Shown: positions 12,796-18,093 of the stretch, piece after piece
Numbering within the stretch: the first letter of the stretch is position 1
Layout of the letters: every line of letters starts with the position of its first letter
Assembly (NCBI GenBank): GCA_025839675.1
Contig: CP104013.1
Span: forward strand, 1,980,001-2,012,000
DNA length: 32,000 nucleotides
From: Candidatus Lokiarchaeum ossiferum
Lineage (GTDB): Archaea; Asgardarchaeota; Lokiarchaeia; Sigyniarchaeales; Promethearchaeaceae
Direction: 5' to 3'
Position numbers and translations under genes: made by a program
Notes under the pieces: generated by a model
What the model was told of the DNA's origin: nothing
Database searches by the model: none
What the model saw: only the letters and a program-made list of their open reading frames with translations

Positions 12796-13515
12796 ATGAA
12801 ATATATTGGAGTTGATGGATGTCGATCTGGTTGGATGTGCGCCATTATTGAAGAACAAACGAAATTTTCGATTTCAATTTATCCAACTTTAACCTCCCTA
12901 TGGAAGAACCATTCGGACGCAACCCGAATTTTTATAGATATTCCGATTGGGTTGCGAGATTCAGGCTCAACCCCTCGAAAATGTGATCACCTTGCAAGAA
13001 AAATTCTTACCCGAGCACGTTCATCCAGCATATTTCCACCACCTTGCCGTAAGGCACTATATGCGACAACTTATATGGATGCAAATCGAATAAATCGTGA
13101 ACGAACCACCAAAGGGCTTTCCAAACAAGCATGGAATATTTGTGATAAAATACGAGAAATGGATCAATTATTAATCTCTGATACTTCTGCGCGCCCCATT
13201 TTCTATGAAAGTCATCCTGAAGTGTGTTTTTGGGCATTTAATCAAGGAAAACCTATGGAACATTATAAAAAAACACAAGAAGGAATCCAAGAACGAAAAG
13301 AGGTATTACAAAATCTAACTTCTGCTTCCTTTGACCTATTCTCAATACAAAACCACAACATAAAAAATGGGAAATTTGAGTCAGATGATATTTTAGATGC
13401 ATGGGTTCTTGCTTTTGCCTCCTCGAAATCAGCAAGTCAAATCAAATCCTTGCCAAATCCACCAGAATATGATAGATTAGATCATCCAATGCGAATTGTT
13501 TACGCTATGAGATAA
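12796..13515 (+). CDS. DUF429-family protein (predicted RNase H-like fold)
   Basis: 239 aa. The N-terminus MKYIGVDGCRSGWMCAII, and later HPEVCFWA and DDILDAWVLAF, match the remembered DUF429 pattern. Confidence 0.6.
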   Translation: MKYIGVDGCRSGWMCAIIEEQTKFSISIYPTLTSLWKNHSDATRIFIDIPIGLRDSGSTPRKCDHLARKILTRARSSSIFPPPCRKALYATTYMDANRINRERTTKGLSKQAWNICDKIREMDQLLISDTSARPIFYESHPEVCFWAFNQGKPMEHYKKTQEGIQERKEVLQNLTSASFDLFSIQNHNIKNGKFESDDILDAWVLAFASSKSASQIKSLPNPPEYDRLDHPMRIVYAMR

Positions 13516-13708
13516 AAAAAAAGAGTGCTTCTCAACTTTTCTAAATCGCTCTAAAATATTTTTTGACTAATCTAACAAAATGATCATCCTAAAATCAACA
13601 ATTTTGAGTCATCTTAGATTCTTTTTACAATTTTCATTGGTAATCAATTTTGAATATCTTTGATCTCGAACGATTTATTAAGAAAAATGAAATACGTTAG
13701 AACAGAAT

Positions 13709-13715
13709 AAAAAAA
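13709..13715 (-). terminator. Oligo-U tract, a probable archaeal terminator of the hydrogenase operon
   Basis: A7 on the plus strand gives U7 on the minus-strand transcript. It lies about 12 nt after the last GC-rich hairpin of the vhuU 3' UTR. Archaeal RNAP terminates at oligo-T tracts. Confidence 0.4.
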
Positions 13716-13742
13716 GATGAAAAAGGTGAGCATCCCCGGACA

Positions 13743-13794
13743 GGGGTCTCCAGTTTCTCCAGAGTTTGTGAGAAACGTTCATCGAACTCAACCC
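13743..13794 (-). promoter_or_regulatory. Candidate SECIS element (kink-turn / eukaryote-like type) in the vhuU 3' UTR
   Basis: The minus-strand RNA is ...GGGUUGAGUUCG-AUGA-ACG-UUUCUC-ACAAACUCUG-GAGAAA-CUG-GA-GACCCC. UUUCUC (13775..13770) pairs perfectly with GAGAAA (13759..13754), plus a closing G-C. The 10-nt loop is A-rich. The 5' AUGA (13782..13779) faces a 3' GA (13750..13749), allowing tandem sheared G.A/A.G pairs. GGGU (13794..13791) can pair with ACCC (13747..13744) as a lower helix. This was hand-folded only, and a competing GAG-A-CCCC-UGUCC-GGGG-AUG-CUC hairpin exists at 13728..13750. Confidence 0.4.
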
Positions 13795-13801
13795 ATGAAG
13801 T

Positions 13802-13951
13802 TTAACCGCAGTCAACTTCTAACTTGCGAACAATGCGCTCAGTACCATCAGGTTCCACAACGGTTATATGAGCAGCACACGATAATCAGCAATCATAACA
13901 GCGGATTACCATTTCGAGCAAGTTTAAGATACCTTCATTTACTTCTACCAT
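13802..13951 (-). CDS. vhuU: VhuU-like selenopeptide: a separately encoded C-terminal Ni-ligand segment of the [NiFeSe] hydrogenase large subunit, with in-frame UGA (Sec) at 13888..13886
   Basis: Hand translation of the minus strand gives ATG(13951) MVEVNEGILNLLEMVIRCYDC-TGA-LSCAAHITVVEPDGTERIVRKLEVDCG-TAA(13804..13802). With TGA read as Sec this gives ...VIRCYDCULSCAAH, the conserved ...VIRxYDP(C/U)xxCxxH terminus that the upstream large subunit lacks. A 21-aa post-His tail follows, typical of the endopeptidase substrate. The gene is missing from the ORF track because the TGA splits it into pieces shorter than 60 aa. Confidence 0.85.
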
Positions 13952-13977
13952 ATTAGGTCACATTTTAGGTTGTTCGA

Positions 13978-15315
13978 TTATTTTATCCAAGGTTCAGGTA
14001 ATTTAAGTTTTGATAAGGCATCTTGCTCAAAGATTTGTTGAGCGGCATGCTTTACACTTTTCTCAATTCCTGCAATATTATGGTTGGTTGCAACAATGAT
14101 ATTTAATTTACGACAAATCCCATCGGCATCGGTAGCCATATCATAAATTAAATTACCCCGAGGCGCATCAACCATTCCCACACCACGTCCTTCCTTAGGT
14201 TTAACATCAAGAGTTTTGATATCAGTACTTAGGATTTGAGGATCTTTGAGAAGAGTTACAATATTTTCAAAGGCTTCAACAGTTTCGATAATTCGAGCCC
14301 AATGGTAAGCGAAAGTATTGTGAATTACGCCACAATCCGCACCACAGACTTTTTGATACATTTCTTTTCGAGCAGCTTCTGCCAATGGAGTGGACATTTC
14401 ATCACAAGCATTCAACATAGCAAGGGAATTGGTTCGATAAATTCCATCGGGATATCCTGCGGGTTTGAAGTAAGTGTGGCTTGCATAATTATGATCAACC
14501 ACTTTCTCTCCAATTGCTTCAAGATAGTCTGCTGGTTTATAAATGTGCTTTTTACCTTCAGGAGATACGAAAATGATATCACCATCATAAATATCGTGCA
14601 CAATCTTGCCATTGACTTGTTTACCCACACCACAATAATAAGTTTCGGTGGCTGCAACATTTGCAATAACATCCCAATAATCAGATACCACTTTCTTTGC
14701 AATATCTACGGTTTTCTTCACAAATTCTAATTGTTCTGGAATTTGAGCGATATTGGCATCACGAACTGCAGATGACAAGGGATTTCGCATCCCACCGACA
14801 ATTCCTGCAATAGGACCAACAGATTTACCACCAATAGCAGTACAAATGTTTTGGCCAAAATCCATCATTTTTAATGCCATTGCCCCAACTTCAGGCATAT
14901 CCTTGATGATATTCACAACATTACGTTTTCCAGCAGGAGCAAACGGACCATAAATAAAATCAGGAGCAGCCAATGCAAAGAAGTGCAATAAATGAGAACT
15001 GTATTGCTTTGCATTAATAAACAACTGACGCAATTTATAAGCGGCTTCTGGAATTTCTACCCCCCATGCAGCTTCCACAGATTTAGTAGCTGCTAAATGG
15101 TGGGGAATTGGACAAATTCCACAAATTCGATTCGTGATTCGAGGTACATGCTCTGCATATCGCCCTTCACACAATTTTTCAAAGAATCTGGTAGTGGTGA
15201 TGTTGAATTGGACATCCTTTACGGTTTTCCCATCTTCACCCAATACCAGTCGTAATCCACCATGTCCTTCTAATCGAGTGACAGGTTCTATTTCATATAC
15301 TTTATCTGGAGACAT
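13978..15315 (-). CDS. vhuA: [NiFe(Se)] hydrogenase large subunit, group 3 Mvh/Vhu-like, C-terminally truncated (split form)
   Basis: 445 aa. The N-terminal Ni-ligand motifs are present (TRLEGHG and RICGICPIPHH, i.e. RxCGxCxxxH), and the body is hydrogenase-like. It ends ...NHNIAGIEKSVKHAAQQIFEQDALSKLKLPEPWIK with no DPCxxCxxH motif. An AAGGTGA Shine-Dalgarno lies upstream, and its start is 1 nt from the hdrB stop. Confidence 0.9.
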   Translation of the reverse strand: MSPDKVYEIEPVTRLEGHGGLRLVLGEDGKTVKDVQFNITTTRFFEKLCEGRYAEHVPRITNRICGICPIPHHLAATKSVEAAWGVEIPEAAYKLRQLFINAKQYSSHLLHFFALAAPDFIYGPFAPAGKRNVVNIIKDMPEVGAMALKMMDFGQNICTAIGGKSVGPIAGIVGGMRNPLSSAVRDANIAQIPEQLEFVKKTVDIAKKVVSDYWDVIANVAATETYYCGVGKQVNGKIVHDIYDGDIIFVSPEGKKHIYKPADYLEAIGEKVVDHNYASHTYFKPAGYPDGIYRTNSLAMLNACDEMSTPLAEAARKEMYQKVCGADCGVIHNTFAYHWARIIETVEAFENIVTLLKDPQILSTDIKTLDVKPKEGRGVGMVDAPRGNLIYDMATDADGICRKLNIIVATNHNIAGIEKSVKHAAQQIFEQDALSKLKLPEPWIK

Positions 15316-15316
15316 T

Positions 15317-16204
15317 TTAAAGATTCACCTTAGCTAATGCTTCTTTCCCTTTATTACGGTGGAAGTTCAATCCAAGAGATTTTGGATCTTTACCCATGGC
15401 TAATGCCAATAATTCGGTAATATAGAAGATTGGAAATTTATATTCTTCCCCTTCTGCAGCCAGGGCTTTTAATTTCGGTTGTTCACTATCAAATTGCTGG
15501 AAACATGAAGGACAGTTCACAGTCAAACAATCTGCATCTGCTCGTTTGGCTCCATCAATTTTTGATTTTAACATGATGTTGGCAGTGTTCACATCAGAAT
15601 TTCGCACTACATTCCCGCAACACAAGTTTTCTTCTGCAAAGGAAACAGCAGTAGCACCAGTAACTTCTACAAGTTGATGCAAATACTTCAAATCCATCGG
15701 ATCCTCTTCAACCTTTAAAATATGTGAAGGTCGAGCATAATGACATCCTGGATGACAAGCCACTTTCAACCCGGTTAAGGGATGAGTGATTTTTGCTTTA
15801 ATCGCTTCCAAACCAACTTCTTCTACTAATACACGCACGAAGTGCTTTATATTAATTGTTCCATTGTATTCTTTACCAACTTTGGCAAGGATTTCATTTA
15901 CGCCTTTTTTCAAGACAGCATCATGTTTCATTTCATGATCCGCCACAATCATCGATTGAGCACATCCATTACATAAAGACATAATGTCTTTATTTTCTTT
16001 TTCAGCTACTGAGATGTTTCGAGCAGCTAAAGAAGCCCATGTTTTTTGATCCACAAAGCGCAATCCAACAGGATTAGGACAACATGAAAATTCTCCAGGA
16101 GAAGTTACTAAGCCTAATTCATCGAACACTACTTTTGCGGAAGCTTCTAAGAACGGTAGACGATTGGTCATTAAACAACCAGGAAATAATTTGTATTCTG
16201 CCAT
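15317..16204 (-). CDS. hdrB: Heterodisulfide reductase subunit B-like protein (two CCG domains)
   Basis: 295 aa starting MAEYKLFPGCLMTNRLPFLEASAKVVFDELG. Cysteine-rich CCG-type motifs are present (FSCCPNP, LCNGC, ACHPGC, LCCGNVV, NCPSCFQQFD). Its start overlaps the hdrC stop by 1 nt. Confidence 0.85.
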   Translation of the reverse strand: MAEYKLFPGCLMTNRLPFLEASAKVVFDELGLVTSPGEFSCCPNPVGLRFVDQKTWASLAARNISVAEKENKDIMSLCNGCAQSMIVADHEMKHDAVLKKGVNEILAKVGKEYNGTINIKHFVRVLVEEVGLEAIKAKITHPLTGLKVACHPGCHYARPSHILKVEEDPMDLKYLHQLVEVTGATAVSFAEENLCCGNVVRNSDVNTANIMLKSKIDGAKRADADCLTVNCPSCFQQFDSEQPKLKALAAEGEEYKFPIFYITELLALAMGKDPKSLGLNFHRNKGKEALAKVNL

Positions 16205-16728
16205 TACGCGGAACCCTCCTCTTTTTCTTTAATTGTATTTTCAATACCGGTCGCAGCCATAATTGCTTTCACTTCATCAACGGGAATCGCTGGAGGCAAT
16301 CCAATACCCAACTTTTCACGTCGTTTATTTATTGCGGGTTGCACAGGAATTGCCATCCCATTATCGCGAATAGTTCGACACGATTGAGGATAGAATTCAG
16401 GTGTTGCTCCTGCAGCACAAGCTGCGTTTTTTAATACACAAATAATCTCCGTAATTGGAATTTCGGCAGGGCACATTTCATCACATGTTTCACATGCGGT
16501 GCAGCCCCATAATGCAAATGGGTCTCGTCCCACTGCAGCAAATAGTGCTTCCTTATACCCTAAGGCAGAGAAAAGCACCAAATCACGTGGATTATAGCGT
16601 GAACCATGTTGTTGACTAATGGGACATACGTCATTACAAACTCCACACTGCATACAGTATGATAATTTGTCTCCACCCATCATCAAATCCAAAACGGCTC
16701 GTTTTAAGTTTAAATCTGCTTTTACCAT
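16204..16728 (-). CDS. hdrC: Heterodisulfide reductase subunit C-like protein (2x[4Fe-4S] ferredoxin domain)
   Basis: 174 aa with two ferredoxin-type cluster motifs, CMQCGVCNDVCP and CTACETCDEMCP. A strong AAGGAGG Shine-Dalgarno overlaps the end of the upstream small-subunit gene. Confidence 0.85.
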   Translation of the reverse strand: MVKADLNLKRAVLDLMMGGDKLSYCMQCGVCNDVCPISQQHGSRYNPRDLVLFSALGYKEALFAAVGRDPFALWGCTACETCDEMCPAEIPITEIICVLKNAACAAGATPEFYPQSCRTIRDNGMAIPVQPAINKRREKLGIGLPPAIPVDEVKAIMAATGIENTIKEKEEGSA

Positions 16729-16740
16729 TTTTATTCCTCC

Positions 16741-18093
16741 TTATTTTTCCTCCAATTTATGCCCAAGGGTGCTAGTAGGCACACAAAATCGGGCAAATAA
16801 TCCCGCAGGATCAGAGAAGAATTTCTTAATATTTTCAGGGGAATCCCGACAAATTGAAGGGAACAAGCTCATAGCTTTGGCTGCGTAATCATCAACATTT
16901 ACTGCAGGACCATAACAACCTAAACAGGGAGAATTGGCGCGCGGACAGGTTGCTCCACAACCACCTTTGGTGATCGGCCCCATACACACATACCCTTGAA
17001 TTAAGAGACATTTATCTTGATCTGGGAAACCTTCATAATCACGTTTATATCGGACTACTTCTTTATTTTCCACATTCCGTTCACAAGCAGAACACACAGT
17101 CTTGGCAGAATCATCATAATCAGGATTATCTTTTAAATTGGCCATAGAAGCACCAATAATATGATTCACCATCTCAGGATAACCTTCGGCGGTGTAATCT
17201 ACAATTTCTTTATTGTTAAAAGTTTTCATCTTGATTGACTCTGGATCTAATTTCACGGCACGAATTGGATCTGCTTTACCAACCAAATAACCTAAAGGTA
17301 CAGATGAAAGAGTCATCATTAAAGCAGTGACAGTTTGACTTACTTCGTCTTTGGTCAATGGTTTTTCAGTTAGTTTTGCAAACAATTTATTGGCATTTCC
17401 TTCGTGGATTGCTTTGGTTAATCCGAATTCACCACTCACGGGATAACCTGCAGCAAGTTTTCCAATTGGATCTCCAGCAGCAGTAATAGGGCCATAACAG
17501 AGCGTTCCAGCATCCAATAAACAGTTTTCTAATGGGCAAACATCACACATACTTTTACTTGCATCAACCTTAGTATCTGGAGCACCTAATACATGAGCGA
17601 TTAGTCCAACAATGTTTCCTGGTTTTGGTGGACATCCCGGTAAATCAACATCAACTTTCACTTGAGTGTGGAGATCTGGAATAGCATCCATAAACTTAGG
17701 AACATGTTGATCAGGCACTTTGGCACCTGCATCAACGAATTCAGTATCTAAAAATTTTCGTTGGGTTAATTCTTCGATCGTATAGAGGTTAGCCAATCCA
17801 GGACATCCCCCTAATACAGCACAAGACCCCATTGCGACAATTATTTTGCATTTTTGACGCATTAATTTTGCATTCGCAAGATCACCTTCGGTTCGAATAA
17901 ACCCTTCTAAAAACCCAACGTCGACTGACCCATCTTCATAGCCTTCTAAATCTTTAATTTTGAAATCTACTACGGCTGGCCAATAGACAAACTCGAGTTC
18001 CGGTAATACATGCAAAAGCGTTAAATGCGAGTCAAGTAGGGATTGATGGCAACCCCAACAACTTGAAAGTTGCATAAAGCTACATTTTACCAT
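16741..18093 (-). CDS. vhuG: [NiFe] hydrogenase small subunit, group 3 MvhG/VhuG-like (unusually long)
   Basis: 450 aa. The proximal-cluster cysteines are in the expected contexts (MQLSSCWGCHQSLLD, AMGSCAVLGGCPG, DLPGCPPKPG). The C-terminal half is Cys-rich (CDVCPLENC...C, CSAC, C..C...GGCGATCP...PCLGC). There is no Tat or signal peptide, so the protein is cytoplasmic. A GAGGT Shine-Dalgarno lies upstream. Confidence 0.88.
   Translation of the reverse strand: MVKCSFMQLSSCWGCHQSLLDSHLTLLHVLPELEFVYWPAVVDFKIKDLEGYEDGSVDVGFLEGFIRTEGDLANAKLMRQKCKIIVAMGSCAVLGGCPGLANLYTIEELTQRKFLDTEFVDAGAKVPDQHVPKFMDAIPDLHTQVKVDVDLPGCPPKPGNIVGLIAHVLGAPDTKVDASKSMCDVCPLENCLLDAGTLCYGPITAAGDPIGKLAAGYPVSGEFGLTKAIHEGNANKLFAKLTEKPLTKDEVSQTVTALMMTLSSVPLGYLVGKADPIRAVKLDPESIKMKTFNNKEIVDYTAEGYPEMVNHIIGASMANLKDNPDYDDSAKTVCSACERNVENKEVVRYKRDYEGFPDQDKCLLIQGYVCMGPITKGGCGATCPRANSPCLGCYGPAVNVDDYAAKAMSLFPSICRDSPENIKKFFSDPAGLFARFCVPTSTLGHKLEEK

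Follow-up and report, generated by a model that had tools for sequence, protein, structure and literature searches.

A probable eukaryote-like SECIS element downstream of vhuU in Candidatus Lokiarchaeum ossiferum, with a kink-turn set on a three-way junction

Selenocysteine (Sec) insertion sequence (SECIS) elements of Asgard archaea form the only link known so far between archaeal and eukaryotic modes of decoding UGA as Sec. Here we describe a candidate element of this kind downstream of vhuU in a 32,000-nucleotide (nt) stretch of Candidatus Lokiarchaeum ossiferum (contig CP104013.1, positions 1,980,001 to 2,012,000; hereafter the window). In the lokiSECIS of Mariotti et al. 2016 (PMC4989117), for which VhuU was among the founding families, AUGA precedes a 9-base-pair (bp) stem and an 11-nt loop that prefers A in its first five positions and has G as its last, GA follows the stem (AA in VhuU) and a stop codon adjoins the element. 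The same authors obtained no matches with eukaryotic, archaeal or bacterial SECIS models, found no SBP2 homologue in Lokiarchaeota, described a stop codon overlapping AUGA for VhuU.1 and reported a signature of AUGA, A-rich loop and GA for every other Loki selenoprotein gene. Generalizing this definition, Huang, Xiao and Zhang 2024 (PMC11227280) characterized type I eSECIS-like elements by a GA_[G/A]A core, a stem of 7–15 bp with no more than 2 mismatches and a loop of 8–20 nt, and added a family-specific 'lower stem' ([U/C]GG_C[C/U][A/G]) for frhA-type genes.

The vhuU gene of the window (13801..13951, minus strand, as are all features below unless stated) has 49 codons and a UAA stop at 13803-13801. 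It encodes a short C-terminal part of the [NiFeSe] hydrogenase large subunit, with the translation MVEVNEGILNLLEMVIRCYDC-UGA-LSCAAHITVVEPDGTERIVRKLEVDCG-UAA, the end of which reads LSCAAH...DCG-UAA. Codon 22 is an in-frame UGA, the Sec codon (13886..13888, motif DC-U-LSCAAH), and falls within the nickel-binding DxUxxCxxH motif. Directly upstream lies vhuA (13978-15315; Pfam NiFeSe_Hases), and a split vhuU gene after vhuA is also found in about 30 Asgard loci. The column of this UGA holds '*' in every Asgard locus having vhuU, and the non-Asgard homologues that match the motif are unsplit large subunits with Cys at that position.

We identify the structured RNA at 13794-13724, 7 to 77 nt past the vhuU UAA, as the vhuU SECIS of the Lokiarchaeota/Asgard 'eukaryote-like' type, a reading that we put at roughly 85%. 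All Sec-containing Asgard vhuU genes examined are followed, at the homologous position, by an AUGA...GA hairpin (25 loci parsed in full, on which all family counts rest, and L086, read by eye; 26 loci, some of them closely related). The structure is conserved, its helices covary and it is associated exclusively with Sec-containing vhuU; position and conservation together suggest a role in Sec insertion. The element is a genuine conserved example of the published lokiSECIS type, to which the refined architecture adds value.

In the window copy, the whole element (13724..13794), delimited by the minimum free energy (MFE) structure and by comparison, is a three-way junction of a closing helix (P1), a kink-turn with the main stem (P2) and a second hairpin (P3). 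Folded alone, 13720-13797 gives this junction as both MFE and centroid structure at -21.7 kcal/mol. P1 begins 7 nt after the stop; its 5' strand GGG(U)UGAGU (13786..13794, with U13791 bulged) pairs with the 3' strand GCUCACCU (13724..13731), that is, G13794-U13786 with G13731-U13724, at -8.8 kcal/mol in duplexfold. Between P1 and AUGA, two nucleotides pair with the two that lie between GA and P3, forming the C helix of the kink-turn: U13785 and C13784 (13784..13785) with A13747 and G13748 (13747..13748), as supported by family counts and covariation. The kink-turn loop and the 5' half of the G.A tandem (13779..13783) comprise L1 G13783, L2 A13782, L3 U13781, G1b 13780 and A2b 13779, in the nomenclature of PMC4005666, and the AUGA motif at 13782-13779, 19 nt after the stop, is L2, L3, G1b and A2b. 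G2n 13750 and A1n 13749 (13749..13750, from family counts) supply the 3' half of the tandem. P2, the NC helix, opposes ACGUUUCUC (13770..13778) and GAGAAACUG (13751..13759, from covariation) at nine positions, namely seven Watson-Crick pairs plus the basal A13778.G13751, which is the usual non-Watson-Crick 3b.3n pair, and C13777.U13752. Its apical loop ACAAACUCUG (13760..13769) has 10 nt, an A-rich 5' end and a final G. P3, recognized by conservation, is the short hairpin CCCC (13746-13743)-UGUCC-GGGG (13737-13734), spanning 13734..13746. Direct reading of the sequence gives two oligo-U tracts at the 3' end (13709..13724): U5 at 13724-13720 and U7 at 13715-13709. Kissing between the P2 and P3 loops (ACA/UGU) was considered and rejected; the loops are complementary in the window only, and by eye the pairing is not conserved.

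The window copy shares with lokiSECIS the AUGA at 13782-13779 directly 5' of a stem starting at 13778, a nine-position main stem (with a non-standard basal position in 14 of 25 family members), the A-rich start and final G of the loop, a purine followed by A on the 3' side of the stem (GA, 13750-13749), the adjoining stop codon of a UGA-containing selenoprotein gene, and invisibility to existing SECIS models. It differs in having GA after the stem where AA was published for VhuU, in the U that precedes the final G of the loop (usually A), in a UAA stop 19 nt upstream of AUGA where the VhuU.1 stop is the UGA of AUGA, and in a closing helix and second hairpin, making a three-way junction, where the publication describes a hairpin only. 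All features of the type I eSECIS-like definition (core, stem and loop) are present. The 'lower stem' of Huang et al. is probably P1, which reads UGG/CCA in many loci; the type I model places an internal loop between core and lower stem, whereas the window has the 2-bp C helix and P3 there. The main texts of PMC4989117, PMC11227280 and a 2026 review do not mention a third hairpin or three-way junction, although supplementary drawings may show one without comment, and full-text literature searches combining SECIS with 'three-way junction' or 'k-junction' returned nothing relevant.

VhuA relatives in Asgard archaea number in the hundreds and are annotated as Promethearchaeia, Lokiarchaeota, Helarchaeota or Odinarchaeota. 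Among the matches listed in a species-genome scan were 15 Asgard and 65 non-Asgard (control) loci, with no close orthologue among these; 9 further loci came from metagenomes and 12 from an exact-protein look-up of the closest orthologues (72–98% identity). Two vhuU clades were seen. Members of the window's clade have a UAA stop and a structure starting a few nucleotides later; in the second clade AUGA supplies the stop codon, its UGA being at once stop and L3-G1b-A2b of the kink-turn.

RNAalifold, applied to 11 orthologous 3' ends aligned with MAFFT, predicts exactly the P2 hairpin and the CCCC/GGGG hairpin. For P2 in this alignment, 92.3% of cells are paired (73% when shuffled) and 7 of 9 pairs show compensatory (double-sided) changes. 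Shuffled alignments score 0.22 for covariation and slid controls no higher than 0.22, whereas the native alignment reaches 0.63. A stem of nine positions with no more than 2 mismatches, a loop of 10–13 nt and NUGA/NNGA and GA/AA flanks was found in 25/25 loci with enough sequence, and in the second clade it always begins right at the stop codon. In the orthologue alignment, AAAC and the final G of the apical loop are invariant; the window copy and 9 of the other 10 orthologous-clade members have a loop of 10 nt (L100 has 11), and the second clade one of 10–13 nt. P3 is likewise present in 25/25 loci, in a parse that was structure-guided for P1 and P3, and is built from 17 distinct stems, such as CCCG/CGGG, GUCUU/AAGAC and CUCUU/AAGAG. 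Both hairpins being conserved, P2 and P3 do not compete but coexist in one three-way junction.

A MAFFT alignment of both vhuU clades (A3) aligned P2 too poorly for use. We built a covariance model, R1 (52 positions; 15 pairs from the C helix, P2 and P3), from the window's orthologue clade only. An alignment of 18 sequences, 9 of them outside the model seed, has 93.9% of cells paired against 63% when shuffled, 13 of 15 pairs with compensatory changes and a covariation score of 0.84 (shuffles, 0.21; slid controls, 0.19 or less). Because this alignment was fitted to the structure, pairing is favoured, an effect that bears less on the count of pair types and on the slide control. Compensatory changes affect 8 of 9 P2 pairs and 3 of 4 P3 pairs, and 98.5% of P3 cells are paired. 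In the window, R1 has one site, at 70 bits (in the seed by construction), and nothing else below E = 2.7. With default filters it matches the non-seed loci L090, L015, L081 and L008 but misses most of the second clade, and its sole match in the 65 control loci is a partial one at E = 0.29. With filters off, R1 was run on 18 loci outside the window's clade, and in 13 of these a full-length match falls precisely at the vhuU stop; 8 of these matches have E = 0.005–0.18 and 5 are weak (E = 1.4–7.7) yet correctly placed. R1 thus links the window copy to VhuU.1-type elements. No further selenoprotein gene is apparent in the window from UGA-interrupted reading frames, R1 finds none of the vhuU type, and the fetched loci offer none either. 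One 82%-identical orthologue, L081 (3238-3290; identical in L094 and L095), carries a variant with AUGC in place of AUGA (2b = C), AA after the stem and GUCUU-GCCC-AAGAC in place of P3, scoring 33 bits with R1; this element may be degenerate or in a different register.

P1 was not recovered by RNAalifold in the orthologue alignment because its flanks do not align column by column, and flank-swap and shuffle tests were used instead. When 30 nt upstream of the core were searched against 30 nt downstream of P3, the best duplex lay within 0–7 nt of core and P3 in 25/25 loci, usually 0–2 nt from P3, with a mean z-score of -2.4. In a flank swap that kept composition, native pairs averaged -10.8 kcal/mol and non-native pairs -4.8 kcal/mol, and 0 of 20,000 permutations were as good. 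In the second clade (L001 4488-4560, L003 4473-4540, L005 4499-4565 and others), the 5' strand of P1 is formed by the last 3–4 sense codons, as in L003 (GUAGGCUU / AAGCCUAC). With one P1 strand within the last codons and the stop within the kink-turn, coding sequence and SECIS structure constrain each other in these loci; we found no mention of such a coding-region closing helix in the literature.

Across the family, pair -1b.-1n of the kink-turn is formed in 25/25 loci (C-G 13, G-C 11, U.G 1) and -2b.-2n in 19/25 (A-U 8, U-A 6, C-G 4, G-C 1), both with compensatory changes. L1 is G in 18 loci, A in 6 and U in 1; L2 is A in 21/25 and L3 is U in 22/25. Position 1b is G and 1n is A in all 25 loci, 2b is A in 24/25, and 2n is mostly G (21 loci), with A in the other 4. 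At 3b.3n, the 14 non-standard cases are A.G in 11 loci and U.U in 3, the others being U.G wobble (6), A-U (4) and C-G (1), and each of the next eight P2 pairs is formed in 24–25 of 25 loci. At the sequence level the core thus reads as a textbook kink-turn, with C helix, 3-nt loop, G.A/A.G tandem and NC helix.

L7Ae-family proteins bind kink-turns in archaea, and no archaeal SBP2 is known. A core of this kind could therefore also be read as a protein-binding site, for example for L7Ae, that regulates translation or mRNA stability, with the SECIS lying elsewhere or recoding being SECIS-independent. We consider this very unlikely: the motif strictly co-occurs with Sec-containing vhuU, its signature of AUGA, A-rich loop and GA is common to all other Loki selenoprotein genes, and the 3' untranslated region (UTR) holds no alternative conserved structure or GAA_A element. 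The CGAUGA of the element also resembles the C box of a C/D-box small RNA; this candidate was dropped, as there is no CUGA D box, guide architecture or Rfam match.

Several observations count against the SECIS reading. The MFE z-scores of the window copy relative to dinucleotide shuffles (RNAfold) are -0.43 for 104 nt and -0.52 for 78 nt, no better than chance. Rfam returned no SECIS or credible family at the gathering threshold for the whole window, or at E <= 10 for 13600-13900 (301 nt). The loop has 10 nt where 11 were published for lokiSECIS. C13777.U13752 is the one departure of the window copy from the kink-turn consensus and the sole mismatch at that P2 position among the 25 loci (shared by the near-identical L090), and leaves only 7 Watson-Crick pairs predicted. 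The 25-locus parse was guided by the model, which inflates the percentages paired, though neither the number of pair types nor the flank-swap test. Finally, a lokiarchaeal SECIS failed to work in Methanococcus maripaludis (PMC11881835). The Rfam result is uninformative, as Rfam is without an Asgard SECIS model. The loose published type I pattern (AUGA, 7–15 bp with no more than 2 mismatches, 8–20 nt loop, GA/AA; our own re-implementation) fits 13782-13749 with a stem of 9, a loop of 10 and 2 mismatches, but also fits about 90 places in the 32-kilobase window and cannot discriminate; a stricter pattern requiring an A-rich loop failed to reveal a convincing further element, either in the window or among the Asgard loci. 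With weak folding energy, no Rfam match and an unspecific pattern, adjacency to a Sec gene is the sole argument that the single sequence offers, and the test must therefore be comparative. An energy z-score of about -0.5 and a pattern found at some 90 places are also what a chance hairpin in a locally GC-richer stretch would give. The comparative data refute that explanation and leave it with a negligible likelihood: position is conserved in 26 loci, and compensatory changes occur in three helices and the C helix.

The U-runs that follow the element here recur in most orthologues, and those right after P1 are likely to serve as an oligo-T termination signal of the archaeal kind, where the transcript would end. 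Together with the convergent intergenic site and the short G-C hairpin of P3, they could indicate that the hairpins are merely a termination or 3'-end stabilizing structure of the vhuG-hdrCB-vhuAU operon, unrelated to Sec. Archaeal termination, however, needs oligo-T only, and no intrinsic terminator of bacterial type was found at the element. Termination also has no use for the A-rich loop or for the invariant G.A/A.G nucleotides of the kink-turn; L001 and L005 of the second clade have the structure without a following U-run, and no such motif follows the Cys-type fused genes of the 65 control loci. A purely terminating structure is accordingly improbable, and U-runs that act as terminators would not conflict with the SECIS reading.

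P3 invites comparison with the SECIS of Methanococcales and Methanopyrus (GAA/A 'KTL'), which also lies in the 3' UTR of vhuU and has a short G-C-rich stem. If P3, with its 3–4 consecutive G-C pairs, were the G-C-clamped upper stem of such a canonical euryarchaeal element, the reading GAA-CCC...GGG-A in orthologue L096 would fit. The published GAA_A pattern, however, has 0 matches in 13600-13830 on the minus strand, G13748 and A13747 pair and covary in the C helix and leave no unpaired GAA bulge, and both A's of GAA, absolutely required in methanogens, are absent here. The asymmetric loop is missing, and the conserved nucleotides and the fold differ; membership in the methanogen type is refuted, and we give it next to no weight. 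With eukaryotic type I SECIS (RF00031), in turn, the element shares AUGA...AA...GA, a kink-turn core, the topology of helix 1 and helix 2, location in the 3' UTR and, presumably, action at a distance. It differs in that Rfam gives no match to RF00031 or its clan even at E <= 10, helix 2 is shorter, 5' of the G.A pairs stands a strict kink-turn loop of 3 nt where the eukaryotic element has a larger internal loop, the 3' strand bears an additional hairpin, and the host lineage is without a known SBP2. Compared with simple kink-turns such as Kt-7, the C helix, 3-nt loop, G.A/A.G, 3b.3n A.G and NC helix follow the standard order. The k-junction of TPP riboswitches (PMC4005666) likewise has a third helix on the non-bulged strand, directly opposite the loop, whereas P3 starts after -2n, two pairs below the loop. 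As P3 begins only after the two C-helix pairs, the element is, as judged from its predicted pairing, probably a kink-turn on a three-way junction rather than a strict k-junction.

The locus had first been singled out from the bare sequence, and the central claim of that preliminary description, an AUGA...GA hairpin forming a eukaryote-like, Lokiarchaeota-type SECIS, is supported, while its hand fold is wrong in two helices. All quoted strings and coordinates (AUGA, UUUCUC/GAGAAA, G13776-C13753, the loop, GA, CCCC-UGUCC-GGGG and the U-runs) were confirmed on the minus strand, as was the GC-richer 3' UTR (G+C 0.52 in 13725-13801, against 0.24 in the remaining intergenic 13516-13723 and 0.35 in the whole window). 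The AUGA...GA hairpin proved positionally conserved, with 7 to 8 of 9 pairs covarying. A proposed lower helix GGGU/ACCC did not hold up, with 50% of lettered cells paired. Of the second hairpin then drawn, CCCC/GGGG is conserved in its 17 stems; its GAG/CUC extension (81% paired, no compensatory change) is superseded because the covarying P1 uses the same CUC. The suggestion that the two hairpins compete also fell, both forming within one junction. Assignment to the eukaryote-like type agrees with PMC4989117 and PMC11227280 apart from the 11-nt loop, and the exclusion of the methanogen GAA/A type was borne out by the pattern scan. Lack of a covariance-model hit was among the outcomes named as speaking against the claim, and Rfam indeed gave none, a result that says little as Rfam has no Asgard model; compensatory changes in homologous 3' UTRs, another of the checks named, were found in P2, P3 and the C helix, with P1 supported by the flank swap.

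A working model of the SECIS function can be drawn from these features. P1, in which the start of the 3' UTR pairs with the stretch preceding the oligo-U, closes the three-way junction, one arm of which is P2, a nine-position stem with an A-rich 10-nt loop set on the kink-turn (G13780.A13749, A13779.G13750, A13778.G13751), and the other P3, the short G-C hairpin. A ribosome would pause at the UGA (13888-13886), about 104 nt upstream. By analogy with the eukaryotic system and in line with the published interpretation, the kink-turn and A-rich loop may then recruit the Sec-specific elongation factor with Sec-tRNA, either directly or through a putative kink-turn-binding (L7Ae-type) adaptor, and the UGA would be decoded as Sec, a nickel ligand of the [NiFeSe] hydrogenase. 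Because P1 lies 7 nt past the stop, or in the last codons with the stop in the kink-turn, a terminating ribosome would have to unfold the element, which would presumably refold in each round.

The window copy alone adds little; comparison sharpens the structural definition for the vhuU family to a kink-turn with a 3-nt loop, a covarying 2-bp C helix, a third hairpin and a closing helix able to reach the coding sequence. Defined in this way, the element offers concrete constructs and point mutants with which binding of Asgard L7Ae-family proteins and of SelB could be assayed, as well as a more specific search model than the current loose patterns. More speculatively, a functional Asgard VhuU SECIS may be a kink-turn on a perfectly paired three-way junction in which closing helix and P3 are obligatory, a generalization that we offer tentatively and consider doubtful. 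P3 could be a docking site for a putative archaeal SECIS-binding factor, or it could be a structural vestige of the G-C-clamped euryarchaeal SECIS stem; the element would then literally combine the archaeal and eukaryotic designs. The three-way-junction kink-turn architecture deserves testing on other Asgard selenoprotein families.

Downstream of the element lies a convergent intergenic region, with a DUF429 gene at 12796-13515 on the plus strand; its remainder, 13516-13723 (24% G+C), showed no detectable structure and no Rfam match. Upstream, the operon (13801-18093) runs in the order vhuG-like, hdrC-like, hdrB-like, vhuA and vhuU, which is the same in all close orthologous loci. The VhuG-like protein has 450 amino acids, of which only residues 12-167 are covered by a Pfam match (Oxidored_q6), leaving about 280 C-terminal residues unassigned. 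Three loci (L009, L013 and L088, one of them a Thorarchaeota metagenome-assembled genome) have vhuA homologues with at least 480 nt of downstream sequence and no vhuU open reading frame directly after, so the split Sec-containing vhuA/vhuU arrangement is not universal among the Asgard matches.

Some of the genes compared are themselves irregular. L003 has a premature TAA in vhuU at about 4431, after ...HITVVDE, with the remainder in another frame, while an intact SECIS lies 44 nt downstream; either the assembly is at fault here or the gene has recently become a pseudogene. In L086 (3796-4130), vhuU is apparently interrupted, with IRIYD in one frame, F-UGA-LSCAAH in another and about 30 extra nt between them, and its element has a 3-nt bulge in P2 and retains the C helix, P3 and a 7-bp P1 (GGUAACA/UGUUACC). 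The L015 contig (SLSH01000336.1), binned as 'Bacteroidales bacterium', carries an Asgard-type vhuA, a Sec-containing vhuU and its SECIS, and protein cluster P0117, labelled 'Candidatus Nanopelagicaceae bacterium', contains an Asgard-type vhuA; both sources are probably mis-binned Asgard contigs.

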